Below, in pieces: positions 302 to 36,157 of a stretch of 39,669 nucleotides of DNA. A model generated the notes under the pieces. That model saw only the letters and a program-made list of their open reading frames with translations. It had not been told where the DNA came from and did no database searches. The stretch lies in IMG/VR virus record IMGVR_UViG_2778261033_000015, one strand, 5' to 3'. This DNA comes from a virus. Lineage: Duplodnaviria > Heunggongvirae > Uroviricota > Caudoviricetes. Made by a program: the position numbers and the translations under genes. Within the stretch, counting starts at the first letter, position 1; the number at the start of each line of letters is the position of its first letter.

Positions 302-384
302 TATAGCGCGGCGATTTTTTTGATACCGATTTGCATTTCATTTGATACCGCTGAAAAACGCCGATACGCAACTTATTTGATACT
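302..384. repeat. Right-end (attR-side) subterminal repeats, candidate transposase binding sites
   Basis: Three direct copies of TTTGATAC(C/T) at 319-327, 341-349, 376-384; the same motif occurs three times in inverted orientation at the other end (39422-39576). Confidence 0.5.
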
Positions 385-429
385 AAATCGGCGCTTTTCT
401 TTTGAGTTTTAGAATGAGTTTTTAAGCGC

Positions 430-1167: not shown

Positions 1168-1321
1168 GACAGGATTTCCTTGTGTATGTGGGGTGCTCTG
1201 TGGCGCTCGGAGATGTGATTTGATTGAGGGTTTTACTGCGCGGACATTTTACTTCCAGATAACTGAAACTGGCCCGTGCCAGTAGCTTATTGCAGTGTCG
1301 GCACCGTATGTTTCGATACAT
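1121..1321 (-). CDS. com: Com, zinc-finger translational activator of mom
   Basis: ...[29 protein letters not shown]... resembles Mu Com (IRCKNCNKLL...EIRCPRCK); overlaps mom start. Start set at internal Met (1321); the ORF extends to 1366. Confidence 0.75.
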
Positions 1322-1359
1322 GACCGCATAACCTCCTGCTTTGTTGTTGATGCCTTTCT

Positions 1360-1395
1360 CATGCAATCGATCGACAAAAACGATCGATTCGATTT
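1360..1395 (-). promoter_or_regulatory. Candidate Dam-methylation-sensitive regulatory region upstream of com/mom
   Basis: Palindromic ATCGATCGACAAAAACGATCGAT with two GATC sites (1369-1372, 1382-1385), 13 bp apart, about 50 bp upstream of com; Mu has a GATC cluster in the equivalent place. Confidence 0.45.
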
Positions 1396-1594
1396 GTTTA
1401 ATTGATACAACAAATAGATTGAAAAGTCATCAACAATGATTCAGGGAGGTGATTATTTACTTAAAGAAAACGAAGAGTTAGGTGGTGAAAACGATCATAA
1501 AATGATCATTTTATTGACTTTTTATACAGTGAAGGTAGGATCACGCGTATATGTAGTATGTTTCAAATCAACAGGATACTACATAAAAGTGAAA

Positions 1595-1620
1595 CCCAGC
1601 ATAGCTGGAACTATGCTGGG
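1595..1620 (-). terminator. Candidate intrinsic terminator (minus strand) insulating com/mom from upstream transcription
   Basis: Perfect 10-bp stem CCCAGCATAG/CTATGCTGGG with 6-nt loop; on the minus strand it is followed by TTTCACTTTTAT. Confidence 0.3.
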
Positions 1621-1742
1621 TCAATCTGTAAAAACTTGCATCAATGCTTTACTTCGAGCTCGTGGCGTATCCTATGATATTCCCCGGTCTCCTGTAAAGC
1701 AGAGATGCATAAAAAGGAGATCTTTATCATGGATGAAAGAGC

Positions 1743-1900
1743 CTGTTTGCCCTGCCTGTAAGACTCCCTTACAGCTCATCTATCGCCGTTCTCGATCTCA
1801 AAATGGCAAGACATACAAACCCAAAAATGCTTCCTGTTTCAGGATGCTGATATGTCCTGCCTGTTCTCCCAGGAGGGAAAATACACAAAACGTGCATTAA
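1743..1900 (+). CDS. Small zinc-ribbon protein (hypothetical)
   Basis: 55 aa with CPAC...(29 aa)...CPAC; strong Shine-Dalgarno AAGGAG at 1724-1729. Opposite strand to the phage genes; could be spurious. Confidence 0.3.
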
Positions 1901-1938
1901 CAAACTCACCCGGCAGGGAAACCTGCCGGTCGGTATTG

Positions 1939-2184
1939 TTACATCATAGTACCGTCAGTTCCGGGCTGAACCGGCTCTGGTTGCTCTACGGGTTGAGGAT
2001 CATTTTCCGTGCTGTTTTCAGCCGGAGAACGGCCAACCATTCGGGCCAGCACTTCATCAACATATGCGTCGATTTGTGCCTCAAAATCCTTGCGAACCTG
2101 CGCCTTCAGCACGCGGTTCACTTCTTCAGAATAAAGTGCCTGTTTGACAAGCTCTTCAGTAACCGTGCCTTTAATCTCTGGCAT
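1939..2184 (-). CDS. Hypothetical 81-aa acidic protein (cargo island)
   Basis: ORF with strong RBS (AAGGAG, 7 nt before ATG); acidic, Pro/Glu-rich C-terminus. Confidence 0.5.
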   Translation of the reverse strand: MPEIKGTVTEELVKQALYSEEVNRVLKAQVRKDFEAQIDAYVDEVLARMVGRSPAENSTENDPQPVEQPEPVQPGTDGTMM

Positions 2185-2219
2185 GAATATTCTCCTTTTG
2201 CAGGTATATTGCCCCGTTA

Positions 2220-2402
2220 TCAGAGCGGGGTCGGGTCGTTTGGGGATGACGGTGCCTGTGCTGTTTTACTGAGTTTTTCAGCTGCCGCATCATCAATTTT
2301 ACGGCGAATATAATTTCTGATGACCTTATAACCACCGCTCACCAGATATAACGCACTGACCACAGCGCAGAAATAAAGCAGCATTGTATGAACGAATGTC
2401 AT
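2220..2402 (-). CDS. Hypothetical 60-aa small membrane protein (cargo island)
   Basis: RBS AAGGTAAGG before ATG; N-terminal hydrophobic helix (LLYFCAVVSALYLVSGG) followed by basic tail. Confidence 0.5.
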   Translation of the reverse strand: MTFVHTMLLYFCAVVSALYLVSGGYKVIRNYIRRKIDDAAAEKLSKTAQAPSSPNDPTPL

Positions 2403-2548
2403 ATAACCTTACCTTTGATATTGACTACATAATTCGTTATCGGGTAAAAACATCGAAGCGACTGATAACCACTCCTTCGGGAGTATTTTTATTTTCCTTT
2501 ATGGGTTAGGTAGCTCCCGCCAGCCATATCATGACCGGCGGGATTTTT

Positions 2549-4588
2549 TTATTCTGTTACCGCTTTTTTCACTTCCACCACAATGCTGTCAATCAGCACC
2601 GGGTAAGTTGCATTTTTTGTGATATCCGTTACGCGGAGTTTGTCCACCGGGAAAGTTCCTACTGGTGACTGCGTCAGGGTAAACGCGGCACCATCCTGAC
2701 CATCAATAACCGGAATAACCTGAAGGCTGTTATTTCCTGCAAAACGGAAGGCCAGCGTATGCCATTCATTATCAAATGCACCAAAGGTTCCCAGTTTCTG
2801 GTTATTTGTTGCCACTTTTGCATTGTGGTACATCACATTCAGGTCTTTTGCGTCTGTCTGGATGTAGAACGATGCCAGCAGATTATTCCCTGCATCCCCT
2901 GTCAGGGTGACACCCTGCGGCAGAGAGGAAACCGGCCAGTAAAGCCCCATGACATACTGGTTTGCCACCAGGTCGCCAGGTACTTTAAAACGACAACTGA
3001 TTAAACCACCATTTTTCAGCAGTTCAGCACCAGTACCGGCATCATGATCCAGATACCAAGATGATTTACCTGTTTCCTTGGTCAGTTTCATTGCCTTACC
3101 ACCTGTGCCTCCTGCATCACTGATAATTTCAGCTTTACCGCCAGCCGGCTCCCAGCCCTGGGCTTTCAGATTTCCTTCTGACTCACTGACACGATAAGAC
3201 AGCAGTGTTGTGGTTACTGCTTCAGTTTCTGAAGGTGACGGCACTGGTGCTTCAGTTTCAGAAGATGGAACATCGGCTTTTACTGTGGTTCGCCCCGCAT
3301 GAGTCAGAACTGCCGTGGCCAGACGGTCGGAAATAATCCCACGACGTGCCCATGAACTGAAATGGCTGGCCCGGTCCGCAGATGTCCAGGTGGCGGCACT
3401 GTTACGCCACGTTGAGCCGTAATAACCAATGGATTCAATATCCGGGTCTTCTGCCGGATTGTTGGTGGGTACATTCGCGTCATTTTCATCTGTCATTAAT
3501 GGAACGAAATGAATGTTTTTATCTGTTTTGTTTTTGTAGCCGCCATAGATTGCCTGGTATGCCGGTTCATTTTTCTGTTTCCAGAAATACGTGGTATCGC
3601 CACAAATCCACGGAACGCCAGCAGCACTGCCACCGGTACACTGTTCCGCCTGTTCAGCCAGGTCTGCGCGGAATTTTTCCACCATCGCCAGAAACAGCGC
3701 GGAATGCTCCGTCGGCTTCGCATCAATATCAAACTCGCCCTGCATCCACACCACAGCAAGCAGGCGGTTTTTCGGGTTCTTCGCCAGTGCCGCTTTTGTC
3801 CGGCTGATTAAGTCCTTATACAGCGGCTTATCCACACCCCAGCGGGCTGAGTCCTCTGAAGCACCCGTGCTGTCACTGTACGTGCCGTCAGCACCCGCCG
3901 TGAATGCAGAACCACCACGGCAGCAGGGAACCAGCAGAATCCCCGCATCTGCCGGAATAAACGGCAGCAGTTTTTTGGCAATGTGAAGCCCCTGACCCAC
4001 GGTGCCATATTGCCCTTTAGCCACATCCGCTTTCGGGTGATTTTTTCCACTCATATCCTGCACATCATGCAGACAGTGGTCGGCCAGAATGATGTCGTTA
4101 TACTGACAGGCTTTACCTCCCGGCGTGACTGTACTGCGACGGGCTAACTGCATAATACGCGGTTCGGGGCGGTCATATGTCTCCGGCAGTGGCAGACCTT
4201 CACCGTAAGCCATACCGTTTGACTGACCAGCAAGAACCACCACGTAATACCAGGAAGGGGAGCTGGAAGCAGTTTCATTTCCTGACGGACGGGTATGTGT
4301 TTCAGCATTATCCCAGTCTGACGGTTCAGCAGTACCGGCAACATCAGCACTTAACGGAATGACCGCACCAATACCCGCTCCGGTAATTTCCACACTCGGA
4401 TCACCGGATACTGGCCTTACCCACAGGCAATCCCGTGTATTAAAACTGATGAGACAGTCAGCAAATGTCATTCCTCCTTTTGTTTCGGCCGGAGGAAAGG
4501 GAGCCTCAAGAAATGCCGCTGTACCACCGGAAACTTTAACAGTAAAGTTTCCGGGCATTGATGATAGTTGAACCCATTTGGACGTCAT
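2549..4588 (-). CDS. SASA/SGNH-family carbohydrate O-acetylesterase with C-terminal lectin-like domain (prophage cargo; resembles NanS-p type sialate O-acetylesterases)
   Basis: 679-aa ORF with GQSNGM (catalytic Ser block), WMQGEFD (SASA block II) and a ~220-aa beta-rich C-terminal region (...NEWHTLAFRF...). Sits between gin and com/mom, where Mu has no gene. Confidence 0.75.
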   Translation of the reverse strand: MTSKWVQLSSMPGNFTVKVSGGTAAFLEAPFPPAETKGGMTFADCLISFNTRDCLWVRPVSGDPSVEITGAGIGAVIPLSADVAGTAEPSDWDNAETHTRPSGNETASSSPSWYYVVVLAGQSNGMAYGEGLPLPETYDRPEPRIMQLARRSTVTPGGKACQYNDIILADHCLHDVQDMSGKNHPKADVAKGQYGTVGQGLHIAKKLLPFIPADAGILLVPCCRGGSAFTAGADGTYSDSTGASEDSARWGVDKPLYKDLISRTKAALAKNPKNRLLAVVWMQGEFDIDAKPTEHSALFLAMVEKFRADLAEQAEQCTGGSAAGVPWICGDTTYFWKQKNEPAYQAIYGGYKNKTDKNIHFVPLMTDENDANVPTNNPAEDPDIESIGYYGSTWRNSAATWTSADRASHFSSWARRGIISDRLATAVLTHAGRTTVKADVPSSETEAPVPSPSETEAVTTTLLSYRVSESEGNLKAQGWEPAGGKAEIISDAGGTGGKAMKLTKETGKSSWYLDHDAGTGAELLKNGGLISCRFKVPGDLVANQYVMGLYWPVSSLPQGVTLTGDAGNNLLASFYIQTDAKDLNVMYHNAKVATNNQKLGTFGAFDNEWHTLAFRFAGNNSLQVIPVIDGQDGAAFTLTQSPVGTFPVDKLRVTDITKNATYPVLIDSIVVEVKKAVTE

Positions 4589-4687: not shown

Positions 4688-5248
4688 TTATTTTTCCGAA
4701 ACGCTCGCAGGATAATAACGATAAAGGGTTGAAAGGCCGATATCAAAAATAAGTGCCACCTGTCTTCGACTGACACCCCCGGCCAGTAAACGCCCGACCT
4801 GCTCGTATTGTTCCTGCGTGAGACGACGGGGTCTGCCGCCGGTTCGTCCCCTTTCACGGGCAGCTGCAAGACCAGCCCGTGTCCGTTCGACAATTAATTC
4901 ACGCTCCATTTCTGCCAGCGCACCCATTATGTGAAAAAAGAAGCGCCCCATGGGGGTTGACGTATCAATGTTGTCAGTAAGACTACGAAAATTTATCCCC
5001 TGTTGCTGTAATTCATCTGTCAGCGCAACAAGGTGGCGCATACTGCGCCCCAGCCTGTCCAGTTTCCAGACCATCAGTGTGTCACCGGGTTTTAGTTTCT
5101 TCAGTGCCCGCTTCAGTCCCGGCCGCTGTGTCGTTTTACCACTCATTTTATCTTCAAAAATCTGCTCACATCCTGCACATTCCAGCGCATTTCTTTGTAA
5201 ACCTGTGTTCTGGTCATTTGTTGATACGCGTATATAGCCAATCAGCAT
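4688..5248 (-). CDS. gin: Serine recombinase, DNA invertase Gin
   Basis: MLIGYIRVSTNDQNTGLQRNAL...GRPRRLTQEQ... near-identical over long stretches to Gin/Hin/Pin/Cin invertases; adjacent to the invertible segment. Confidence 0.95.
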   Translation of the reverse strand: MLIGYIRVSTNDQNTGLQRNALECAGCEQIFEDKMSGKTTQRPGLKRALKKLKPGDTLMVWKLDRLGRSMRHLVALTDELQQQGINFRSLTDNIDTSTPMGRFFFHIMGALAEMERELIVERTRAGLAAARERGRTGGRPRRLTQEQYEQVGRLLAGGVSRRQVALIFDIGLSTLYRYYPASVSEK

Positions 5249-5303
5249 GTATTTACCTTCCTTAAAAAGAGGTGGAAAGGCCTTTTAAAGCAGATATACG
5301 GCA

Positions 5304-5327
5304 TCCCTGAAACCTCGGTTTACGGGA
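5304..5327. other. gix-like crossover site (gin-proximal)
   Basis: TCCCTGAAACC-TC-GGTTTACGGGA: imperfect palindrome matching the Mu gix half-site TTCCTGTAAACC; 2-bp core TC. Confidence 0.55.
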
Positions 5328-5673
5328 TACTGTAAACAGGGCCGCGAATGCCCTGCCATCGAACGGAGCGGCTGTTGCAGCGAATAAACTCGCCACTCCA
5401 AGAAATATTAATGGTGTCCCATTTGACGGAACGCAGGATATAAATATTACATCGGGGATGACGCAGTCTGTGGCTGACTCACGTTATGTTCAAAGCATTC
5501 GAAGAGGTTCAAGGTCAACGATTGGAATGCAATATAATATTTTTGAGGTTCCTGACGGATGCGTACTTACAGGGCTTGATGTCGCTGGTGATGGTAATGC
5601 AACGGTAACCGCATATTATCGACCTGTTCAGTTTCTGATAGATGGTTCGTGGAAAACAGCTTCCAGCGCATAA
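5316..5673 (+). CDS. Silent alternative tail-fibre C-terminal cassette (S'v), no start codon of its own
   Basis: Plus-strand frame reads GLRDTVNRAANALPSNGAAVAANKLATPRNINGVPFDGT...YYRPVQFLIDGSWKTASSA, parallel to the C-terminus of the expressed fibre; open from the gix site onward. Confidence 0.65.
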
Positions 5674-5752
5674 AAGTGCAGTAGTTCAAAAAACAGATTA
5701 TCTGAATAAATATATGATGATTTTGTCTTTTCAACAAAAACAAGGTGAAATA

Positions 5753-6308: not shown

Positions 6309-7220
6309 TTACACTGAACTTACCGTTCTCCAGGCATTATTAATATAAATCTGAACCGGGCGATAATAGACCCCACCGATATTGTCCGCAGACCGGGAGC
6401 CGGTTTCCTGCACGTTAATTCCGGAAAGCATACAACCGGAAGGTGCGCTGTAATTCCATGACATTTCATTGCCTCCGGGTGAATGATAGCTCTGTGCTCC
6501 AAGCTGAACATTCTGTACATACCGGCCATCTGCGGTTGACTGCGTCATTCCTGACGTGATGTTGATATCCAGCGTTCCGTCAAAAGGAACACCATTAATA
6601 TTTCTTGGGGTGGCGAGTCTGTTTGCTGCCACGGCGGTTCCACCCGATGGCAGGGCATCAGCAGCCTTATTTACCGTTTCCCGTAAACCGACGTTATCGA
6701 TAAAAGCGCCTTTATCCGGAATGTCTGCGCCGTTCTGCTCCCTGCGCAGGTAACGGTTATCACCTTCGCTTTTGCTGTAAACATCCAGATTATTACGGGC
6801 GGTTCCCGCATTCTCCAGGTCGGCAAGGTTCTGATCCTTCGCCAGAGCATTAACGTCACCGGGACCAAGACTGTTTTTTGTGGCAAGCGCCCCAAGACCA
6901 AGATAACCACGGGCAAGACGCTGGGCTTCCGCACCGGCATCAGCAATTTCTTTCAGGTTGTTTTTCCGGGAAAAGGCATTCGCAGCGATAATGGCTTTAA
7001 TGGACAGCGTAAGCTGGTTTAACTGCGCCTTATCCGGCTGAATACTGGCTTCAGCCAGAATATTCAGCAGTTCGGCCTGGAGAATATTCAGCCAGTCCTG
7101 ACCAATCCAGCTGATACCTTTTTGTCCGTCACCTTCGGTAAACCAGGTGGTGGTATTACTCTGCGCCGGTGCCAGCGCAGGCATATTCGCCACGCCGGAA
7201 TTATTATCAACATGGAACAT
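6309..7220 (-). CDS. Tail fibre protein (S-like; constant part plus currently expressed variable cassette Sv)
   Basis: 303 aa from ATG at 7220 (RBS GAGGAG, TAATG overlap with upstream gene); N-terminus ...WFTEGDG... and C-terminus ...YYRPVQIYINNAWRTVSSV resemble P2 H / Mu S fibres; the gix site lies within it. Confidence 0.8.
   Translation of the reverse strand: MFHVDNNSGVANMPALAPAQSNTTTWFTEGDGQKGISWIGQDWLNILQAELLNILAEASIQPDKAQLNQLTLSIKAIIAANAFSRKNNLKEIADAGAEAQRLARGYLGLGALATKNSLGPGDVNALAKDQNLADLENAGTARNNLDVYSKSEGDNRYLRREQNGADIPDKGAFIDNVGLRETVNKAADALPSGGTAVAANRLATPRNINGVPFDGTLDINITSGMTQSTADGRYVQNVQLGAQSYHSPGGNEMSWNYSAPSGCMLSGINVQETGSRSADNIGGVYYRPVQIYINNAWRTVSSV
6679..6702. other. gix-like crossover site (within tail-fibre gene)
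   Basis: TCCCGTAAACC-GA-CGTTATCGATA; inner arm and core are the exact reverse complement of the inner arm and core of the site at 5304-5327. Confidence 0.55.
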
Positions 7221-26837: not shown

Positions 26838-27142
26838 TGCGTTTTTTTCCTTACAGCCTGCTCCAGCAGCAGTTCGTTCTGATAGGAGACAGAGCGGAGC
26901 GTGGCGTTCGTGGTTTTCAGTTCACCCCGCAGGGTCACGATTTCCACATTCAGACGGTTGACCTCGGCTTCTGTCGGCAGTGACGACAGGCGGGTTTCCA
27001 CCTTCTCAACGCGGTCGGAGAGTTTTTCAAAGGCCTCGCGGGGGACAAACGTTTTGCGCATCAGCGCCATGAATATCCCGCCAGCGGTTGCCGTCGCCGA
27101 AAGGATCGGCACAACATAATCTTTAACGATGCTGACCCACAT
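26834..27142 (-). CDS. Membrane protein with coiled coil (lysis-associated?; Mu gp25 position)
   Basis: 102 aa; single N-terminal TM (VVPILSATATAGGIFMALM) then helical region. Confidence 0.5.
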   Translation of the reverse strand: MWVSIVKDYVVPILSATATAGGIFMALMRKTFVPREAFEKLSDRVEKVETRLSSLPTEAEVNRLNVEIVTLRGELKTTNATLRSVSYQNELLLEQAVRKKTQ

Positions 27143-27350
27143 TACGGGCCTCCATGATGTTCTGGCAGTTCACACAACGGATGGCATCAGGCACAGCAAC
27201 AAGACGTGCGGCGGGGATCTCTCCACCACAGTCCGCGCAGACACGTCTGCCCGGCGTATCCACTGCCTGGCGCTTACGTGTCAGCCGGTTACAAAGGGCG
27301 CGTTCTGATCCCCGCTCCATCACAGCCTGAGCACGATCTGAATCATCCAT
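27123..27350 (-). CDS. TraR/DksA-family C4 zinc-finger protein
   Basis: 75 aa with CADCGGEIP...RCVNCQ, the TraR/DksA C4 signature. Confidence 0.7.
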   Translation of the reverse strand: MDDSDRAQAVMERGSERALCNRLTRKRQAVDTPGRRVCADCGGEIPAARLVAVPDAIRCVNCQNIMEARNVGQHR

Positions 27351-27912: not shown

Positions 27913-28024
27913 GCACGCCCCGGCAATCAGGGCCGGTAAGGCATTATTCACCGCAGCCACAGGACACCCCGTAACAGCAGTACCGCACACAGCAGCGCTA
28001 TCATGATCGGTCGCCAGAAGCGGT

Positions 28025-28525
28025 TCAGACTTTCGGCAAATCGTAGCGACATAACCATTCATCCGCCGAACGGCGGGCCTCAAGGCCGGGGAGCTTCACC
28101 CCCTTTGAATAAATCCAGCGGATATACTGCTTACAGGACGCGGGCATCTGCCCGGCATTGATCAGGCGCAGAAGCGTGGAGTTGCGAAAGTTCGTTTCAC
28201 CGGCCCAGAAGATCCACGAAGCCAGCGCCACCGTCTGACCACGGGTAAGCGGCACCTGAACACGCCGATCAATGGCCGCAAAGGCCCATTTCATGTCCTT
28301 TTCCAGTAGTTCCAGGCATTCTTCATCCGTCAGGGTCATACCCGGTTTCACATCCGGGCCGGTATGGCCGTAACAGATGGTGGGTGTACCGGTGGGATCG
28401 ATATACGTGGAGTTTTCTTTCCCTTCCCAGTAACCGGTGTAATGCGTGGCAATCGTGAACGTCCCGGCACCGGCCAGAACAAGGGCAATCAGCTTTTTAC
28501 GCAGTGGTGCGGGGAGTTTTGGCAT
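28025..28525 (-). CDS. lys: Endolysin, phage lysozyme-type muramidase, probable SAR N-terminus
   Basis: 166 aa; Gly/Ala-rich weakly hydrophobic N-terminus (LVLAGAGTFTIAT) followed by YWEGKE...YIDPTG.PTICYGHTG, the lysozyme catalytic region. Confidence 0.85.
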   Translation of the reverse strand: MPKLPAPLRKKLIALVLAGAGTFTIATHYTGYWEGKENSTYIDPTGTPTICYGHTGPDVKPGMTLTDEECLELLEKDMKWAFAAIDRRVQVPLTRGQTVALASWIFWAGETNFRNSTLLRLINAGQMPASCKQYIRWIYSKGVKLPGLEARRSADEWLCRYDLPKV

Positions 28526-28526
28526 T

Positions 28527-28564
28527 GTTACGCTGTCTCATGATGTTCTCTGAGTCAGCGTAAC
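28527..28564 (-). promoter_or_regulatory. Inverted repeat in the lys leader (possible regulatory site)
   Basis: GTTACGCTG-N20-CAGCGTAAC, ending 1 nt before the lys start codon. Confidence 0.25.
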
Positions 28565-28596
28565 GGTGAAGGAAAGGCGGCAGGCTTTGCGGAATA

Positions 28597-29022
28597 TCAG
28601 AAAAGTGGCGGTTGTGTTCTTGCCAGATGCAGACGGCGCTGTTCACGTATGACGGTATAAATCTGGGTTTCTGACATCCGGTAATGGCGGCGAAGGGATT
28701 CAATTTTCTCGCCCCGGTCCCAGCGCGAAAATATCTCATTGTTTCGCAGCTCGGCAAAGAGAGATTCCCCGACCGGCAGGTAATAACCCCGTCCGCCCAT
28801 ATAGGCTGCCTGAGCCGCAGCCACCTTGCGTGCCAGTTTGCCGGCCAGTACCGGCTCAATCCCCTGACGCTGAAGTTCTGCGCCGGTGACTTCAACCAGT
28901 TCTGACAGGGTCCGCGGCCAGTTCTTTTTGAGAACATCATCAGGGATGTCATCAAGGCGGTCGATAAGGGCGTGCAGTTGCTCACTGTCACCACCAAACA
29001 TGCTCATCTGAGTTTCTGCCAT
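28597..29022 (-). CDS. Mor/C-family transcriptional activator (middle/late gene activator)
   Basis: 141 aa; C-terminal ...LRRHYRMSETQIYTVIREQRRLHLARTQPPLF matches the Mor/C HTH tail; the only family member seen in the window. Confidence 0.8.
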   Translation of the reverse strand: MAETQMSMFGGDSEQLHALIDRLDDIPDDVLKKNWPRTLSELVEVTGAELQRQGIEPVLAGKLARKVAAAQAAYMGGRGYYLPVGESLFAELRNNEIFSRWDRGEKIESLRRHYRMSETQIYTVIREQRRLHLARTQPPLF

Positions 29023-29063
29023 ATCAGCCTCCGGTTCTCGCGTTCCCGGTAAGTTTAAAATAA

Positions 29064-29087
29064 AAATCCCGCGTTGTGGCGGGATTT
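29064..29087 (-). terminator. Intrinsic terminator at end of early operon
   Basis: Perfect 9-bp stem AAATCCCGC/GCGGGATTT with 6-nt loop; on the minus strand followed by TTATTTTAAA; 5 bp downstream of the gemA-like stop. Confidence 0.55.
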
Positions 29088-29091
29088 GGGG

Positions 29092-29601
29092 TTAACGGGG
29101 AAGTGATTTTTCATACTGCCTGCAAACGGCGTCATACCCCATCAGCGTGCGTTCGGGCATTCCCATCGCGGCCAGCATTTTGCGGCGGTGCCATCGCTTG
29201 AGACGCTCCAGCACATCTGAGGCCAGGGCGGGGTGTTGCTCCAGCCACTGCCAGTTTGCCACACCTTCGCCGCCGTTTTGCGCGGCCGTCTGCGATTTCA
29301 CCCAGCGGTTAAGGGCGGTTTCCGCACCATCAGAGATAAAGCCCTGCCGGTGCATCACCTTCCAGATGGCGCGAATTTTAGCGGTCACCGTACCCGGTTT
29401 TAAGGCCCGGTTAACCGGGTTCTGACGCACTTTAAAACCGCGTTTTTTGAAAACATCCAGCACGCGGGATAACTCATCCGGTGACATATCCCGGCAGCTG
29501 GTTTTGCCGGTGACCGCCAGTAGTACGGATGTGTAGGTTTCATCATCCAGGGCAAGCTCGCGTTTTGCCACATGAATGGCAGATATCAGTTTCCCTCTCA
29601 T
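29092..29601 (-). CDS. GemA-like early protein (Mu gp16 family)
   Basis: 169 aa; N-terminus ...LISAIHVAKRELALDDETYTSVLLAVTGKTSC... as recalled for the Mu gemA family; last gene before the terminator. Confidence 0.55.
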   Translation of the reverse strand: MRGKLISAIHVAKRELALDDETYTSVLLAVTGKTSCRDMSPDELSRVLDVFKKRGFKVRQNPVNRALKPGTVTAKIRAIWKVMHRQGFISDGAETALNRWVKSQTAAQNGGEGVANWQWLEQHPALASDVLERLKRWHRRKMLAAMGMPERTLMGYDAVCRQYEKSLPR

Positions 29602-29894
29602 GCTGTATCAACACTCCTGCGGATATGATAGGTATTATTTTCCCGATCGAGCTGAACCCGATACTCCGGAGGAATCACAAAAATATTAAAACCATCATCA
29701 GTTTTTATTCTTGAGTAGCATTCCCCCTTATGATATCTGGCCAGTGCATTAATCAGAGAAGTCGCAGCCTGCCCAATCAGGTATTTTTTATGAAAAATAC
29801 TGATAACTTTCCGGCACAGCCATCGTGTAATGACGAATGCACCGAAAAAGGATGTGATATATAAATACCAGAACAACTGCGAACTACTGTCCAT
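29598..29894 (-). CDS. Hypothetical early membrane protein
   Basis: 98 aa, N-terminal TM (LFWYLYITSFFGAFVIT); lies in a locally AT-rich stretch. Confidence 0.5.
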   Translation of the reverse strand: MDSSSQLFWYLYITSFFGAFVITRWLCRKVISIFHKKYLIGQAATSLINALARYHKGECYSRIKTDDGFNIFVIPPEYRVQLDRENNTYHIRRSVDTA

Positions 29895-30081
29895 TATCTT
29901 TCTCCTTATTCAGTCTTCTGCGGCATTCGGCACAGTCATCAGGGCTTTCAAATGTATCCGGCTCGCGATTATGAGCCAGATATAACCACCGTCCACATAT
30001 ACTGATATTTTCGCCTGTTTTAAAAAAATGATGCTTCCTGGCCATTAGTGGCCGCGCCCATCCAGCGGGTAGACTATTCAT
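29884..30081 (-). CDS. Hypothetical small Cys-containing protein
   Basis: 65-aa ORF in early operon orientation with Cys pairs (CGRW...CAEC). Confidence 0.4.
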   Translation of the reverse strand: MNSLPAGWARPLMARKHHFFKTGENISICGRWLYLAHNREPDTFESPDDCAECRRRLNKEKDNGQ

Positions 30082-30409
30082 TTGCTTTATCCTCCATGCT
30101 GGACAGAATCATATGTATTAATGTCGGGCGTGGAGATATACGCATTTCATTAAGCGTCTGAAGGGCAGCAACAGCTGCCTGTTTATCGGTGCCTTTGGCA
30201 ATTTCAGCAAGAGAATGCACAATCCATAATGGGCTTAACGCTACGGCTGAATGCAGAATCATGTCATCCATAATAATTTCTGGCATATCCCGTTTGTCAC
30301 ATTCTTTATCCATAAAAGAAACGATTTTTTCTGCATCTTCCGGTTTCATGCCTCCGGCGATGAGAATTTTACGATATTCATAAGACGATCTTAATTCAAT
30401 ACTCATCAT
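30074..30409 (-). CDS. Hypothetical early protein
   Basis: 111-aa ORF, early-operon orientation, coupled to neighbours; no recognisable motif. Confidence 0.5.
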   Translation of the reverse strand: MMSIELRSSYEYRKILIAGGMKPEDAEKIVSFMDKECDKRDMPEIIMDDMILHSAVALSPLWIVHSLAEIAKGTDKQAAVAALQTLNEMRISPRPTLIHMILSSMEDKANE

Positions 30410-30421
30410 TCACCTGCCTGT

Positions 30422-30814
30422 TTAATCAGTTTCCAGTGCTTTGCTACGGGCAACAGCCTCACACTCAAAAAATACCGACTCCGGCACACGCTCCTTTAAT
30501 TCACGAACAAGAAAATCATTAACGAGTTCATGACGTCTTATATTTCTTTCCTTTTCCTCCTGGCGCAATACAGCAAGGCGGTATTCAACAGTCCGGCGTT
30601 GTTTCTGAAAGACAGCTAGTGCTTTTCTGGCAGAGTTACGCAATGTATCATCGCCACAGGGTTCGTATTCAAGCTGAAATTTAATCTCTTCAATGGTTTC
30701 TTTTATTTTTGCCAGCAAGCTAAGACAGTCGCTGATTGTCTTCAGTTTTTCATTATCAATATAACTTCTCACGCATTCACCTCCCGTCATTCCGGTAAAG
30801 CTGAAATATGGCAC
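30422..30814 (-). CDS. Hypothetical early protein
   Basis: 130-aa ORF, helical/charged; no recognisable motif. Confidence 0.5.
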   Translation of the reverse strand: MPYFSFTGMTGGECVRSYIDNEKLKTISDCLSLLAKIKETIEEIKFQLEYEPCGDDTLRNSARKALAVFQKQRRTVEYRLAVLRQEEKERNIRRHELVNDFLVRELKERVPESVFFECEAVARSKALETD

Positions 30815-31098
30815 CAGTGCGTCACCTGTCCGTCCTCATCTTCAAGGCAGGCTCCGGTTTCTTCATCAATAAAAAAGCCTTCATACCCCATATGGCCGAT
30901 GCGCAGTTCCTGTTGGTCACCATACTGAACAATCAGCACGACAGCCTCCATATCAGGCGGGAAAGCATCATTCAGTGAATGCCAGGGATAACCGCGCAAA
31001 TCCCCGAAATAAACACCGGTCAGCGTTCCGCCACAGACCGGCATTCCGACGGCACACACAAGGGGTTCATCTGATTCAACAAATAATGTCGTTATCAT
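30787..31098 (-). CDS. Hypothetical early protein
   Basis: 103-aa acidic ORF overlapping neighbours. Confidence 0.5.
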   Translation of the reverse strand: MITTLFVESDEPLVCAVGMPVCGGTLTGVYFGDLRGYPWHSLNDAFPPDMEAVVLIVQYGDQQELRIGHMGYEGFFIDEETGACLEDEDGQVTHWCHISALPE

Positions 31099-31646
31099 GG
31101 CATTAATTCCCGTAATACAACATCTTCGGCAGTCCGACGACGGTGATAAATAAAACTCACCGTGCCCTCGGATAATTCAAATTTCTCGCCGATTTCCCTA
31201 AAGGTAAGACGCCGTGGTGATTCAGCATCCCGTAATTCACGAATAAGACGAACATCATCGTCAGGTATGCGGGTGAAGGGCAGCAACTCTCCGTATTTTT
31301 TCATGCTTACGCCAATATATCGCGCCCGATTGTGGACAGAATCCCGGTCTCGCCCCAGATATTCTCCTATTTGCTTACCGGTCATTGTTCTGGCATTTTT
31401 TCGGATAAATTTATCTTCATCAGGTTTAAATCTGAGGCGTTTGCATTTGAGCAACTCCGGGTAAGTACCGCGTAATAAAACAATCCGGTTATGTACACCC
31501 CAGAAACTTCTTTTTATCCTGACAGCAATATCCTTAACCGGGGTGGATGGATAAAGCGCAATCAGCAGCGCATCTTCTTCAGGTGTCCATGCGCGAACAT
31601 GAGCGGGTGCACGGCCTTTTCTCCCCATGGGTTGTAATATCATCAT
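31095..31646 (-). CDS. Hypothetical early protein, possible DNA-binding
   Basis: 183 aa; basic, with HTH-like C-terminal segment (LTFREIGEKFELSEGTVSFIYHRRR). Confidence 0.5.
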   Translation of the reverse strand: MMILQPMGRKGRAPAHVRAWTPEEDALLIALYPSTPVKDIAVRIKRSFWGVHNRIVLLRGTYPELLKCKRLRFKPDEDKFIRKNARTMTGKQIGEYLGRDRDSVHNRARYIGVSMKKYGELLPFTRIPDDDVRLIRELRDAESPRRLTFREIGEKFELSEGTVSFIYHRRRTAEDVVLRELMP

Positions 31647-31649
31647 GCA

Positions 31650-32165
31650 TCACCCCCTGACTCGCTTTTCAGCAGCATAAAACTCATCAGACAGAATTTC
31701 GGTCATTTTCTGATTTGCGGGTTTTACGCCGCACTCAAGGTAAATCACATCGTCAACGCAGAACCACTTCACAGGGCCAAACATGATTGCCGAGAAATCA
31801 ATACCCAGCCAGAACAACAGTGCATCGGTTCTGGCATACGTGACGGGCGAATATTCACGCCACAGACTGTTAAGTTCGTCAGAGGCAACGCGCAGGGCTT
31901 TGGGAATACGTGATGTGCGCGGTGTGCAGCTCCAGCCATTCGACGCAGTCGGTTTTCGCCATAAGTCGCGATGAAAAGGATATTTGTCATCCATAAAGCG
32001 CAGCCCTTTAAAACAAAAGCCACTGATACCGGATACAAATACCGACCGGCACGCAACATTCAGCACGGCCTCAAGGCGTTTTGCCTCATCCTTAACTTTC
32101 TGGCAGTCCTGCTGATATTTTTGCCACGCGGCCAGCGCGGAAGGGTTTGATGTTTTAAAGAACAT
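31650..32165 (-). CDS. Hypothetical early protein
   Basis: 171-aa ORF, no recognisable motif. Confidence 0.5.
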   Translation of the reverse strand: MFFKTSNPSALAAWQKYQQDCQKVKDEAKRLEAVLNVACRSVFVSGISGFCFKGLRFMDDKYPFHRDLWRKPTASNGWSCTPRTSRIPKALRVASDELNSLWREYSPVTYARTDALLFWLGIDFSAIMFGPVKWFCVDDVIYLECGVKPANQKMTEILSDEFYAAEKRVRG

Positions 32166-32698
32166 TACGCCACCTCCGCAGATATCCCGGCAGGCGCGGC
32201 CGTCCGGTCAACAATCAGGTAACGCAGAACGCGCGAGGTGATATTCCAGCCGCTTAAACCGCAGATAATGACACCCAGGCGTATGTCGATATACGCCATC
32301 ACAAACTGGGGCACGCCTTCTTTCATGGCCTGCTCATCAACTTCAGCCACCACATAAACGGTTTCACAGGTCAGAACGCCCTGAGCAAATTCCCACGCCA
32401 TTGACGGAATATCATGCCCCTCAATCCACGGCAGGGATTTTCTGAAGCTGCACCACTGAACATCATCAGCCGCACCTTCCTGGCTGCATTTGCGACGAAC
32501 CGGCTGCACCGGGCGGGGACGCGGAATATCATAAAAACCGTTACATTCCGTCAGCACCCCGGCATCGACCGCATCACGCAGAAAATAAACCATCGAGGAT
32601 GGCGGCATATTCATTTTTTCAGCCAGAATGCCGCAGGTCAGACGCCCGTAAATACTCAGCCAGTTTTTAACCCCTTCAAGCACTTTTGCACCAATCAT
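32165..32698 (-). CDS. Hypothetical early protein
   Basis: 177-aa ORF, stop/start overlap with neighbour. Confidence 0.5.
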   Translation of the reverse strand: MIGAKVLEGVKNWLSIYGRLTCGILAEKMNMPPSSMVYFLRDAVDAGVLTECNGFYDIPRPRPVQPVRRKCSQEGAADDVQWCSFRKSLPWIEGHDIPSMAWEFAQGVLTCETVYVVAEVDEQAMKEGVPQFVMAYIDIRLGVIICGLSGWNITSRVLRYLIVDRTAAPAGISAEVA

Positions 32699-32701
32699 GA
32701 A

Positions 32702-33244
32702 TTATTCCTCCGTCAGCGCCACATATTCAGAATGTTTAATCTCCTGGCATTCTTCAGGAATACCCCCTTTTATTTCCCTGCCATAAGCGCCTACTTTAAA
32801 CACCACGCACAGGGCATCACGGGAGAGCGACGGGGTCCACCAGGAGTCCATGTTAAACATGGAGGGGATTCTCATTACCCCCAGCTTTTCACAGAGCCAG
32901 ACAAGGAAATCAGGACGCTTTCTTAACTCGCGTTCAGCGGCTTCAATCATTGCGGCAATCGCCGGTCCTTCAGGGCATGACTCATCAGGTCTGGCAATAA
33001 AGCACGGTCCGTCCCCGATAAAAGCCACATCATCGCGCTTACGCCAGCCCGCAGGCAGAGCACCAGAAAAATAAAACTCACTGATTACGTCCATGGCAAA
33101 CGGCTTTAAGCGCAATCCGGCAGCGCCTGTATTTTTCAGTAATGCCCGAAGAATACTGTTGCGTAGCGGTAAAACAGTCTGTTGATATTTGGTGAAATAT
33201 TTATTTGTCTGCACACGGTCTAATTTGAAATAAAAATATGCCAT
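32702..33244 (-). CDS. Hypothetical early protein
   Basis: 180-aa ORF downstream of gam. Confidence 0.5.
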   Translation of the reverse strand: MAYFYFKLDRVQTNKYFTKYQQTVLPLRNSILRALLKNTGAAGLRLKPFAMDVISEFYFSGALPAGWRKRDDVAFIGDGPCFIARPDESCPEGPAIAAMIEAAERELRKRPDFLVWLCEKLGVMRIPSMFNMDSWWTPSLSRDALCVVFKVGAYGREIKGGIPEECQEIKHSEYVALTEE

Positions 33245-33341
33245 ATATCCTGTTCCTTATTTTCAGTTTACAGGCGCAGGCAGTCCCCTGACGCGAGCGC
33301 CATACTTAAAACGATGTGATATTTAAAGATTTAATGCGGTG

Positions 33342-33872
33342 TTATTTATTCAGTCCGGCGTCCTGTTCAAAAGGCTCGACATAAAAACTTTCAGCGCCTT
33401 TATTCACCTTAATACCGGCAATGCCTTTCACTGCATCCGGCTCCGCTAGGACCGCTTCCTTGTTCACTTCCTCTTTCGTGCGGATGAATCGCTCAAGCCC
33501 CATACGGCGCAGCATTTCAATCACACCTTCCACATCACGGCTGACGCTGCATGATGGATTTCCCAGCCGCCATGACACTGTTCCGGTGGTCAGATTGGCT
33601 GTTTTGGTTTTGCCGCCGTTCGTCAGCTCATCGCGGTTGGTTTTGCACCAGTCCTGAATCCCCTTAAAAAGCACTTTGATTTCTTTTTTAAGGTTTTCAA
33701 TCTGCGGCGTATAACGGGCGGTGATTTCTGCCACTTCATCATTCATCGCCGTTTCCAGCCGTAGCGCCTCTCGCTGAATATCGCCCAGGGTACGGATATC
33801 GCGGCTGACTTCTTCGCGGGTCTGCGGTGCAGCCTCGGCTGCGGCCTTTAATTTTGTAACACGTTTAGCCAT
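33342..33872 (-). CDS. gam: Host-nuclease inhibitor protein Gam
   Basis: MAKRVTKLKAAAEAAPQTREEV...LRLETAMNDEVAEITARY...ELTNGGKTKTANL...FIRTKEEVNKEA... closely parallels Mu Gam along its length. Confidence 0.85.
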   Translation of the reverse strand: MAKRVTKLKAAAEAAPQTREEVSRDIRTLGDIQREALRLETAMNDEVAEITARYTPQIENLKKEIKVLFKGIQDWCKTNRDELTNGGKTKTANLTTGTVSWRLGNPSCSVSRDVEGVIEMLRRMGLERFIRTKEEVNKEAVLAEPDAVKGIAGIKVNKGAESFYVEPFEQDAGLNK

Positions 33873-33883
33873 TTTGTTTTTCC

Positions 33884-34177
33884 TTATTGCAGTGTGCCTG
33901 ATGCTTTATGCACGCGGTGGCGTTTAATGATGGCATCCGCCCCAAAAGCCTGTACAGATGCCTGAAATTCCGCTGAGAGAAACTGAATAATTTCAGGACT
34001 GTGATACTGGAGAATACTTGCATAAACGCCACAGAGTGACGTCGGCCTGTTATTCGTATCACGTTCTGTTTTTACATCCACACCAATCTTTTCATGCACT
34101 TCAACACAGTCATTGCCTGCCGGTTTTTCGTCATGCGAAACATGCTTAAATTCAAAAATAACGCGTACTTTGCTCAT
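33884..34177 (-). CDS. Hypothetical early protein, paralogue 2 of tandem pair
   Basis: Start set at internal Met MSKVRVIFEFKHVSH..., which mirrors the N-terminus of the adjacent upstream gene. Confidence 0.5.
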   Translation of the reverse strand: MSKVRVIFEFKHVSHDEKPAGNDCVEVHEKIGVDVKTERDTNNRPTSLCGVYASILQYHSPEIIQFLSAEFQASVQAFGADAIIKRHRVHKASGTLQ

Positions 34178-34181
34178 GGAA

Positions 34182-34454
34182 TTACCCCTGCTGATTAAAT
34201 TCATTACCTTTAATAACCCCGGAACGCATGCTCATATCTTTCATGAGCGCACTGGCTTTCATTGCCACAAGTTCAGCAAAGTCTCTGCTTTCCGCGAGCA
34301 TAACCACCCCAAAAATCATGGCGGGTCCATCACCTTTCTGCTTTATCCCGGTTGAACGTATGTCCAGACTTACCCCCATGCGCACTGTTCCATCAGCGTT
34401 TTTATGGATAACGTGCTCCTTGTATTCGAAAATAATGCGTACGACTTTACTCAT
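34182..34454 (-). CDS. Hypothetical early protein, paralogue 1 of tandem pair
   Basis: MSKVVRIIFEYKEHVIH...; same N-terminal 15 aa motif as the next gene. Confidence 0.5.
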   Translation of the reverse strand: MSKVVRIIFEYKEHVIHKNADGTVRMGVSLDIRSTGIKQKGDGPAMIFGVVMLAESRDFAELVAMKASALMKDMSMRSGVIKGNEFNQQG

Positions 34455-34732
34455 CCTCTGGTCCTCGTTCTGTTTGGATAACTGACCCGGCGTCTGACCT
34501 CACGGCAGAACCGAATCATGGCATTAAAGGCTTCTTCCTCCGTCACCGCTTCCGGTATCCCCGGAACCAGTAACTGCTCCTGTTCATCACGTCCATGACG
34601 CGCCATAACCTCAATCACATGCCGTACCGTGGCAGGCTTTCCGGCAACTATCGGCAATGCACCTTCCGGCAGGACGTAACCAAACTCAATAAGACCACTC
34701 GACCACGCCCATGCAATGAGATTTTTTTTCAC
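34451..34732 (-). CDS. Hypothetical early protein
   Basis: 93-aa ORF, 4-nt overlap with downstream gene. Confidence 0.45.
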   Translation of the reverse strand: MKKNLIAWAWSSGLIEFGYVLPEGALPIVAGKPATVRHVIEVMARHGRDEQEQLLVPGIPEAVTEEEAFNAMIRFCREVRRRVSYPNRTRTRG

Positions 34733-34733
34733 C

Positions 34734-35000
34734 TCACACCTCCCAGTAAACCGTGCAGCCGCTGATGCGGGTGGCCTTCACACGGCGGCGCAGGCCGTTG
34801 GTCTGTATGGTGATTTCAATTTCACCGGTTCCCTGCACGTTGCCTACCGGCGGCGTGGTTTTCAGTGCAAAACGTTGCGGATAGCGCTTACTGCGTTCCA
34901 GTACCGCACCGGCAAGTTCGGTCAGACGGCGCGCGCTGTTCAGGGAGTCGAATAAATTCATTTTGTTACCGCAGGATTGCATATTCATATAACACCTCAT
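34734..35000 (-). CDS. Hypothetical early protein
   Basis: 88-aa ORF; start uncertain. Confidence 0.4.
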   Translation of the reverse strand: MRCYMNMQSCGNKMNLFDSLNSARRLTELAGAVLERSKRYPQRFALKTTPPVGNVQGTGEIEITIQTNGLRRRVKATRISGCTVYWEV

Positions 35001-35228
35001 TTAGCTGACTTGTTTCGCACCAACAGAACGGCATATTCCGCTGTAAACGTCTGTCGCACCTTCGCGATCAAGTCCGGCAGATATCACCATTCGTGTGCGG
35101 TCATTAAATTCAAAAAGTAAATCGCCACATTCTTTATTTTCGGCCAGTGAAATCACCTTCACGTTATCGAAATTAACCAGGTAAAAGCGTCCGTAAATAT
35201 CAGGAATATTAAATACCGCCATAATCAC
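35001..35228 (-). CDS. Hypothetical small early protein (Mu kil position)
   Basis: 75-aa ORF immediately downstream of B, overlapping its stop; positional analogy only. Confidence 0.45.
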   Translation of the reverse strand: MIMAVFNIPDIYGRFYLVNFDNVKVISLAENKECGDLLFEFNDRTRMVISAGLDREGATDVYSGICRSVGAKQVS

Positions 35229-36157
35229 ACCTGTGAGAGTAATTCAGGGTTGGTATAAACCTCTTTAAAGGCCGCATTAATATGTTTTTCTGTCAGCGCC
35301 GCGCCTTCACCGCTGGCGGTGAGCCACGCCTGGTTAAGCGTATGTGTCAGAACGCGTAACGCTCCCGGCTTTTCAGCGATAGCCTGCATGACGGCCAGCT
35401 CGGCCTCACCACTGATCCCCCACGCCCTGGCAATGGCCAGCACATCCGCCTTTTTGGCCTTGCGAAGTTGTTTTGTACGGGCAAGACGGCTGAACAGGCG
35501 CGATAAATCATCAAAGGCGCGGCGTCCACCTTTAAACAATCCGCGCGGGTTACCAATAAGCACCATCCCGATCCCCGTGGCGTCCTGAATTGCCCGGAGT
35601 TGCTCCAGACCGTCAATACCCAGATGATCCGCCTCATCCACAATCACCAGTCCACGCGTTCCCATCAGGCGACGGCGGATGGCGCGGGATAATGCCCCTT
35701 TGTTCGCGCGGGTGTAATCAATCCCCAGCGCATCGGCCAGCTCCAGCAGACACTCCGTGACGCTGGAGTGCGCGGGTGACAGGGTGATCATCCAGGTGTT
35801 TGGTTGCTCCTGGCAGTAATTACGGGCAGTGGCCGTTTTACCCACACCCGGTACGCCCACAATAACGTTAATACAGCCCATCAGACGAACCGCCTGAAAC
35901 AGTGCGCGCAGCTCCTGGACTGTCTGCGTTTCCACAAACTGCGGCGGTTCCGGCAGTGCGCTTTGTTTATTCCAGTTTTCATACCAGGAACGCAGGGAAG
36001 CAGCCACAGCGGCGTTATCGCCTTTATATTTCCCCTTGCGGAAAGCCGATAATGTGCCGTCGGAAATTCCCGCCTCTCTGGCGATGGCATACTGCGTCAG
36101 TACGCCGCCATCAATAAGTTCATCAATGGTCTTGATTACATCGTTAATATCAGTCAT
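35225..36157 (-). CDS. B: Transposition ATPase / target DNA activator B
   Basis: 310 aa; Walker A GVPGVGKT; long collinear similarity to MuB as recalled (...GDNAAVAASLRSWYENW..., ...KKADVLAIARAWGISGEAELAVMQAIAEKPGALRVL...). Confidence 0.9.
   Translation of the reverse strand: MTDINDVIKTIDELIDGGVLTQYAIAREAGISDGTLSAFRKGKYKGDNAAVAASLRSWYENWNKQSALPEPPQFVETQTVQELRALFQAVRLMGCINVIVGVPGVGKTATARNYCQEQPNTWMITLSPAHSSVTECLLELADALGIDYTRANKGALSRAIRRRLMGTRGLVIVDEADHLGIDGLEQLRAIQDATGIGMVLIGNPRGLFKGGRRAFDDLSRLFSRLARTKQLRKAKKADVLAIARAWGISGEAELAVMQAIAEKPGALRVLTHTLNQAWLTASGEGAALTEKHINAAFKEVYTNPELLSQV

Follow-up and report, generated by a model that had tools for sequence, protein, structure and literature searches.

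Nine consecutive open reading frames (ORFs) on the minus strand of the IMG/VR virus record IMGVR_UViG_2778261033_000015, whose full 39,669 nucleotides are referred to here as the window, make up the part of a Mu-like transposable prophage known as the semi-essential early (SEE) region, which is the distal half of its early operon. Named o1 to o9 from the gemA side to the gam side, they fill the exact interval between a gemA-like gene and gam and are real, selectively maintained genes. They are organised in two layers: a backbone, o9-o8-o7, shared within Muvirus and joined by o6 in the Escherichia coli group only, and an AT-rich cassette, o5-o1, whose modules are swapped among related prophages at or near gene boundaries. 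Taken together, we think it likely that the block is a SEE region with a conserved backbone and an AT-rich swappable cassette, the genes of which serve the lytic phase.

No part of Mu-type phages is less well understood than the SEE region, which in Mu adds to host killing (PMC3325207). The version in the window is carried in prophages of many Shiga-toxin-producing E. coli; among the SEE regions of E. coli Mu-like prophages it is typical, widely distributed and already known in sequence, and current views of Mu biology are unchanged by it. Its value lies in a map that separates the backbone genes o9, o8, o7 and o6 from the swappable modules o5-o1, and in three leads: the putative His-Cys3 family of o2, the conserved predicted transmembrane helix of o1 and a possible fold relationship between gp12 and DUF5420 proteins. 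The first module worth testing is o2, a candidate His-Cys3 mini-protein whose relatives, in temperate and virulent phages alike, number in the hundreds.

All nine ORFs match PHROG families (E 4e-34 to 2e-104), and their frames are intact in five diverged loci. The ratio of nonsynonymous to synonymous substitution (dN/dS, Nei-Gojobori, five diverged copies) was 0.05-0.36 for most comparisons and rose to 0.56 for o9. Adjacent genes overlap by 1-11 nt or are separated by 3-14 nt, and o1 overlaps o2 by 11 nt and gemA by 4 nt (o1 stop, gemA start); the sole larger spacer, 97 nt between gam and o9, showed no unusual RNA structure (z -0.06). Shine-Dalgarno sequences were seen upstream of o1, o2, o3 and o9. 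For o4, the likely start is the GTG at 30772 (116 aa) and not 30814 (130 aa), as the phrog_6158 alignment begins at residue 15 of the 130-aa frame, the RefSeq gene is 351 nt long and a GGAGG lies 8 nt before the GTG. Additionally, a 170-aa frame is open antisense to o8 and o9 (32414-32926, plus strand); it is probably spurious because the substitution pattern fits the minus-strand genes.

A case for regarding some of the small ORFs as frames left open by chance in AT-rich spacer DNA might be built on the seven of nine ORFs that have no Pfam family (o8 matches Gp11_C and o7 Phage_Mu_Gp12) and on o1, for which dN/dS is about 0.6 against close relatives, a value derived from only about 10 substitutions. 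Against this stand the nine PHROG matches, the frames kept intact in every diverged locus, the ancient o1 alleles, which are saturated at synonymous sites yet conserve the N-terminal peptide, and the 479 clusters of the o2 family. The idea is effectively refuted.

Database labels add little on function. RefSeq gives "hypothetical protein" for eight or nine of the genes, with o6 at times called a DNA-binding protein. An NCBIfam scan of all nine proteins yielded nothing useful, a Pfam scan of o1-o5 at E<=10 gave no match, and PDB sequence and profile searches with o4 to o9 returned chance-level matches only. Searches of Pfam, NCBIfam and PADLOC placed o1, o2, o4 and o5 in no family, and for these four no homolog was found in Mu or SfMu. 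An initial annotation, made from the sequence alone, had described nine tightly coupled ORFs between gemA-like and gam in a Mu-type semi-essential early region; coordinates and junctions confirm the arrangement, and homology and gene order, which are as in Mu and SfMu, confirm the type of region. It had called the genes uncharacterised, which functionally they are in every library searched, and had recognised no motif apart from weak helix-turn-helix (HTH) features in the 183-aa protein. The HTH features agree with three HTH-like repeats in o6, and the rest of that statement failed on the Gp11_C match of o8 and the Phage_Mu_Gp12 match of o7. It had also allowed that the ORFs could turn out to be homologs of Mu early proteins of defined function, with ordinary composition: Mu early homologs do exist (gp11, gp12 and the gp9 family), none of the Mu or SfMu relatives of o9, o8, o7, o6 and o3 has a defined function, and the compositional anomaly is real.

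Backbone and exchangeable cassette

Base composition changes abruptly at the gemA/o1 junction, where the GC fraction falls from 0.563 to 0.404. Along the block it is 0.460 in o2, 0.402 in o3, 0.422 in o4, 0.500 in o5, 0.462 in o6, 0.496 in o7, 0.536 in o8 and 0.481 in o9, compared with 0.514 in gam and 0.572 in the late region (7500-29500). The four 500-bp windows spanning 29501-31500 lie 4.2-5.6 standard deviations under the late-region mean (0.572 +/- 0.026). The anomaly thus covers o1-o4 and o6, approximately 29.6-31.6 kb; five genes lack a Mu or SfMu homolog at the site, and of these o1, o2, o4 and o6 are AT-rich, as is o3, and o5 is not. The least AT-rich genes are o7 and o8, those with high identity to Mu. 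The AT-rich stretch initially placed at 29600-30100 is therefore a true anomaly drawn too narrowly, with o3, o4 and o6 equally AT-rich. Elsewhere in the window, GC dips to 0.34-0.41 at 1201-1500, 5451-5750 and 38401-39400, the last being the regulatory end with repressor and ner.

Matches to the block were present in 233 of 5426 complete E. coli genomes, and its segments are unevenly distributed among them. The gp11-gp12 segment (o8-o7) was matched in 233 genomes, 232 of them at 80% coverage or more, and o9 in 214, all at that coverage. The o1-o3 segment was matched in 215 genomes, with 64 reaching that coverage, which are those carrying the window's o1 allele; for o4-o5 the numbers were 144 and 123. 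The whole block is 100% identical in strain 97-3250, and an O157:H7 strain also matches at 100.0% with a slightly lower bit score. Two records of Stx-converting phages, LC727881.1 (64790-69976) and LC727895.1 (11941-16298), contain a Mu-like element of the window's type, so that in both a transposable phage is nested inside a Shiga-toxin phage.

Comparison of 42 loci spanning gam to gemA revealed about 20 gene orders, and the exact order of the window recurred at one other locus. The unit gam-(DUF5420-like)-gp11-gp12 and gemA are fixed across these loci; the recombining modules are o6, o5, o4, o3, o2, o1, a 61-aa ORF, Mu gp13/gp14/Mu_54 and SfMu gp13/14/15. In related prophages, o4-o5 is swapped for the 61-aa ORF, which is very hydrophobic; extra 75-aa and 61-aa ORFs appear; or o9 and o2-o4 are gone. 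DNA similarity breaks at gene boundaries; the segment that replaces o4-o5, for example, fits exactly between the matches to o6 and o3. Both o4 and o5 are accessory modules, and at least o2 comes from an early accessory gene pool common to lambdoid and virulent phages. The separate acquisition of the AT-rich part, proposed at the outset, agrees with this recombination of modules and with the occurrence of o2 in unrelated lambdoid and virulent phages.

The alternative modules sampled from the cassette slot belong to no Pfam family; they include 61-aa and 75-aa ORFs at 5004-5413 (minus strand) of locus L002 and 1854-2039 (minus strand) of locus L004, and the 61-aa product is probably a membrane protein (Wimley-White -13.5 kcal/mol). 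A MazG-like protein seen by eye in the slot of a distant relative was dropped, as it had no Pfam match. Some strains have gam split into 82-aa and 110-aa products and another has no called gp11 (2276-2805 of L062, CP044140.1; 3447-3983 of L060, CP061244.1), which suggests decay of individual prophage copies.

Proteins encoded in the block

Among the backbone proteins, o8 is the homolog of Mu gp11, with 67% identity over 177 aa (Mu 6424-6951). It matches Gp11_C (PF25754) along the full profile (1-78) at 135.5 bits against a cutoff of 27 (E 8e-40), and it lies between gam and gp12 as in Mu, which places it in the gp11 family by synteny as well. The family is built of a highly conserved N-terminal part of about 60 aa, a variable linker and the Gp11_C domain. 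No PDB relative was detected by sequence or profile search, and a winged helix suspected by eye in the N-terminal domain gained no support from profile searches. Similarly, o7 is the homolog of Mu gp12 (55% identity over 168 aa); its membership of PF26885 (Phage_Mu_Gp12) is taken from the precomputed annotation of the exact o7 protein and of all 46 homologs, the family being missing from our local Pfam copy.

The third backbone protein, o9, is 40% identical over 180 aa to SfMu YP_009152197, a "DUF5420 family protein" in the equivalent slot between gam and gp11. Neither o9 itself, which gave no match to Pfam DUF5420 (PF17457, gathering threshold 26 bits) even at E<=10, nor a 38%-identical relative (P0133), which scored only 15 bits, reaches that family. 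We therefore file o9 as DUF5420-like and not as a Pfam member, since homology and synteny agree and the Pfam threshold is missed. It has no counterpart in Mu and is also missing from some prophages, and a literature search on DUF5420 found nothing. With moderate confidence, o7 and o9 may share a phage-specific fold as distant structural paralogs: their predicted secondary-structure elements follow a matching order, and seven of the eight best BFVD matches of o7 are also among the 12 best of o9. BLASTP and hhalign detected no relationship between the two. Flanking gp11 as they do, o7 and o9 may act together with it. A kinship of o8 and o9, raised by a shared cluster listing, was discarded because the proteins are unrelated on comparison; the listing is suspected to be an output artefact.

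The fourth member, o6, appears to consist of three Myb/SANT-like HTH repeats (internal repeat z-scores 3.5-3.7) and is 28% identical to SfMu gp09 of the Mu gp9/E8 family (pairwise E 4e-8). Its Pfam HTH matches are all below cutoff, the best being Sigma70_r4 at 23.3 against 24.1 bits. We infer that o6 is a DNA-binding protein of the gp9 family.

Turning to the cassette, o1 is probably a single-pass membrane protein, as had been proposed for this 98-aa product. Residues 7-25 (LFWYLYITSFFGAFVITRW) have a predicted Wimley-White octanol transfer energy of -13.2 kcal/mol; the Mu membrane proteins gp19, gp20 and gp23, used as controls, gave -15.8, -8.4 and -5.8 kcal/mol, and other early proteins were no lower than -7.7 kcal/mol. 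The basic stretch that follows the hydrophobic helix (RWLCRK...HKK) indicates, by the positive-inside rule, that the C-terminal 70 or so residues are probably cytoplasmic. The gene exists as two ancient alleles with an invariant N-terminus of about 30 residues and a C-terminus about 35% identical. Over codons 1-30, the proportion of synonymous differences between the alleles (pS) is 0.64, near saturation, and that of nonsynonymous differences (pN) is 0.056; over codons 31-98, pN is 0.40 and dN/dS about 0.19. A helix kept invariant despite saturated synonymous sites suggests that its sequence matters in the membrane beyond mere anchoring, and o1 would accordingly work at the inner membrane through its transmembrane helix.

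The most conserved small gene is o2 (dN/dS 0.05-0.08). Nine proteins of its family, down to 30% identity, share invariant G7, W8, P11, K16, H18, F20, S27, C29, W32, C50 and C53. These include all three cysteines of o2, in line with the small Cys-containing protein described initially. H18, C29, C50 and C53 form a putative His-Cys3 zinc site, giving o2 four conserved potential metal ligands of the kind found in zinc-ribbon-like small proteins, with metal binding as a prediction; o2 may thus be a small zinc-stabilised binding module. When 1.84 billion representatives were scanned, 479 clusters at 50% identity were recovered (E<=1e-3), mostly of 60-85 aa. Relatives at 63-73% identity occur on lambdoid-type contigs, in a small-gene cluster downstream of the replication genes with no other window genes nearby. 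At 30-45% identity, relatives are found in 153 Pseudomonas phage records, and all those listed are virulent Pbunavirus/PB1-like phages; further relatives in several E. coli phages adjoin nuclease, polymerase, ParB-like or RusA-like genes. Every distant relative in phages is annotated as hypothetical.

Several resemblances of o2 were considered. A weak, colinear resemblance to bovine pancreatic trypsin inhibitor (BPTI) extends over 43 residues of the family profile, the positions of Cys30 and Cys51 included (E 0.008). A Kunitz/BPTI domain was rejected: o2 has three cysteines where six are needed and no PF00014 match, and PF00014 is found in one of nine relatives, at E 0.018. With minimal reciprocal support and the Kunitz disulfide cysteines missing, we treat the resemblance as chance or convergence. 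Two proteins with multi-repeat o2 matches (P0180, P0195) were set aside as low-complexity repeat proteins that are not relatives. A 226-aa protein (P0287) combines a DUF551 domain (23.2 bits, cutoff 22) with a C-terminal o2-like domain; the two families, o2 and DUF551-type (o5-like), could be functionally linked, or gene calling could have fused two genes.

As for the remaining modules, o3 is 34% identical to SfMu gp14 (tblastn E 2e-13), with dN/dS of 0.11-0.16 and an isoelectric point (pI) of 5.17. The composition of o4 suggests a helical or coiled-coil protein, and its PDB matches are weak, the best being a designed coiled coil. The very acidic o5 (pI 4.05) ends in a DUF551-like motif (..VTHW..), and UniRef alone names it a DUF551 domain-containing protein; neither o5 nor two relatives from its cluster matched DUF551 (PF04448, gathering threshold 22 bits) at E<=10. 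Against a DUF551-motif protein, itself recognised by the motif without Pfam confirmation, o5 aligns colinearly at a pairwise E of 0.043.

Time of action and competing explanations

The early operon of Mu is repressed in lysogens. Since the block is embedded in the corresponding operon, the products of o1-o9 are expected to act in lytic development, and the abundance of the o2 family in strictly virulent Pbunavirus phages also argues for a lytic-cycle role. In Mu, a single long early transcript covers the semi-essential region together with A and B; the 14 ORFs of the region are mostly of unknown function, with few phenotypes, and its deletion restores host viability after infection, so that the region is responsible for host killing (PMC3325207). 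The SEE region is in general poorly conserved and rich in small uncharacterised proteins (PMC8705779). Within the block, neither promoter-like sites (7, against 11.2 +/- 3.5 expected in a consensus scan) nor terminator-like sites (12, against 9.0 +/- 3.1 expected) are enriched. The best minus-strand hairpin sits right after gemA and is the probable end of the early transcript; no Rfam family was found within 28000-35000. By analogy with Mu, transcription of o9-o1 would start at the early promoter and occur only once the prophage is induced or a cell infected; the long early transcript would run on through gemA to the hairpin, no internal promoter or strong terminator being evident on the way. 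The products may then act in host takeover, in support of replicative transposition or in neutralising host factors, and not in protecting the lysogen.

Lysogen protection was among the functions suggested by the initial annotation, which named superinfection exclusion, abortive infection and anti-restriction as candidates for the AT-rich part. In a lysogen-protecting explanation, o1 and o2 would be a separately acquired moron. The break in composition at gemA/o1 is real, o1 is probably a membrane protein, as many exclusion proteins are, its two alleles are deeply diverged and the cassette is exchangeable. Nevertheless, o1 and o2 have no PADLOC match (PADLOC-DB gave no defence-system match for eight ORFs and a marginal homing-endonuclease match for o6, E 0.0096), promoter-like sites are not enriched, and the overlaps of o1 with o2 and gemA place it inside an early operon that in Mu is silent in the lysogen. 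Members of the o2 family are frequent in virulent Pbunavirus phages and in early regions close to replication genes, and selection on the two o1 alleles is purifying and not diversifying (dN/dS 0.04 and 0.19). We consider an exclusion moron very improbable.

Anti-restriction or anti-defence activity at the stage of lytic growth is possible. The broader proposal, that o1-o5 form an accessory region of early lytic inhibitors of restriction, defence or housekeeping proteins, draws on the early-operon site near gam, a known nuclease inhibitor, on small acidic or highly charged products such as o5 and o3, on the high turnover of modules among close relatives and on the relief of host killing when the Mu semi-essential region is deleted (PMC3325207). 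No homology to characterised anti-defence proteins was found in Pfam, NCBIfam, PHROGs or PDB, however, and the purifying selection on o2 and its wide conservation are more in keeping with a housekeeping role in the phage than with an arms-race effector. We regard this proposal as tentative, a real prospect although not the expected one.

The block could also be mainly a replication-accessory module, in which o9-o8-o7 and the putatively DNA-binding o6 support replicative transposition or the handling of Mu DNA ends. Classical genetics assigned an enhancement of replication to this stretch of the SEE region in Mu; a literature search on amplified replication of Mu found no paper. The synteny gam-(DUF5420)-gp11-gp12, kept in Mu, SfMu and prophages of E. 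coli and Salmonella, the adjacency to gam and the three HTH-like repeats of o6 are in favour. Conversely, searches with o7, o8 and o9 turned up neither an enzymatic nor a DNA-binding fold, o9 is absent from Mu and some prophages, and the region is dispensable in Mu (PMC3325207). On balance, this explanation appears unlikely. More doubtful still is a combined scheme in which the cassette is an early counter-defence and takeover toolkit: the o1 helix would bind a host membrane protein, o2, as founding member of a very large His-Cys3 zinc-module family with a functional link to DUF551-type proteins such as o5, would bind a conserved host factor, perhaps in the protease-inhibitor-like mode at which the weak Kunitz resemblance would hint, and gp12 and DUF5420 would represent one new fold working with gp11.

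The preferred reading, a lytic-phase SEE region of backbone and cassette, has its own weak points. Its expression timing is taken over from Mu, AT-rich DNA can conceal weak promoters from a consensus scan, and none of the nine proteins has a demonstrated function. The membrane insertion of o1 and the zinc binding of o2 are predictions. Furthermore, the AlphaFold2 model of o7 is of low confidence (pLDDT 66) and the profile-profile comparison of o7 and o9 is not significant, their possible paralogy being read from the overlap in fold searches.

Flanking genes and known systems

Table 1. Coordinates of the block, its flanks and related early features in the window.
Feature	Position	Strand	Description
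o1	29598-29894	-	98 aa; phrog_17269, unknown function, E 1e-68
o2	29884-30081	-	65 aa; small basic protein; phrog_2358
o3	30074-30409	-	110-111 aa; acidic; phrog_1988
o4	30422-30772	-	116 aa; open frame reaches 30814 (130 aa)
o5	30787-31098	-	103 aa; phrog_6925
o6	31095-31646	-	183 aa; basic; phrog_323 "transcriptional regulator, D5-like", E 6e-58
o7	31650-32165	-	171 aa; Mu gp12 homolog
o8	32165-32698	-	177 aa; Mu gp11 homolog
o9	32702-33244	-	180 aa; DUF5420-like, homolog of SfMu gp11 (YP_009152197)
gemA/gp16-family flank gene	29092-29601	-	43% identity to Mu GemA; PF06252
gam, host-nuclease inhibitor, flank gene	33342-33872	-	PF07352, E 1.5e-41; 57% identity to Mu Gam
Terminator-like hairpin	29064-29087	-	9-bp stem, T-run; directly 3' of gemA stop
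AT-rich zone, exchangeable cassette o1-o6	29598-31646	.	Composition, module exchange
Repressor-like gene	38608-39321	+	
ner-like gene	38321-38569	-	
Transposase A	36229-38319	-	
Transposase B	35225-36157	-	

The order on the minus strand is ner, A, B, five small ORFs including a Kil homolog, gam, o9-o1 and gemA, followed by the terminator-like hairpin, a Mor/C-family gene and the lysis genes. The Kil homolog is an 84-88-aa ORF at 34734-35000 (minus strand; PF26843 Kil_protein, precomputed) with a weak match to Mu kil, which indicates that the host-killing gene kil is present and lies outside the nine-gene block. After the hairpin, a single Mor/C-family activator gene (28597-29022, minus strand) shows 39% identity to Mu C and 27% to Mor; as a lysozyme gene follows it directly, the Mu middle-operon genes gp18-gp20 are apparently absent. 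Among the lysis-region genes, 27123-27350 (minus strand) encodes a 75-aa TraR/DksA-type zinc-finger protein (PF01258, precomputed).

Exclusion and abortive-infection proteins such as T4 Imm and Sp, P22 SieA and SieB and lambda RexB are membrane proteins. Like them, o1 is small, phage-encoded and probably located in the inner membrane; unlike them, it lies inside a lytic early operon without a promoter signal of its own and has no PADLOC similarity. The lambdoid nin-type regions offer a different parallel, as they carry o2 homologs (63-73% identity) amid small genes near replication genes. The neighbours there include an exonuclease-like gene (by inspection only), DUF551-motif genes (by motif only) and an annotated RusA-like resolvase. 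These regions carry DUF551 proteins, whereas the DUF551-like motif of o5 is below any Pfam threshold, and the phage type, replication strategy and other genes of lambdoid phages are unrelated to those of the window.

The closest counterparts are the SEE regions of Mu-type phages themselves. The Mu SEE genes gp11-gp15/Mu_54 (formerly E10-E15) resemble the block in position and orientation, running from gam to gemA in the early operon, and in their tight coupling, their small proteins of unknown function and their gp11 and gp12 genes. Mu has five genes from gam to gemA where the window has nine: gp13, gp14 and Mu_54 are replaced by o6-o1, and the window prophage has the additional DUF5420-like o9 after gam. 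Furthermore, gemA in the window shows translational coupling to the gene before it; in Mu, a spacer with an annotated semi-early promoter takes the place of this coupling. SfMu shares with the window the order gam, DUF5420-family gene, gp11 and gp12, as well as a homolog of o3 (gp14), and its gp09 belongs to the HTH family of o6. Nevertheless, identities between SfMu and the window are only 28-66%, and SfMu lacks o1, o2, o4, o5 and the three-repeat o6 at this site.

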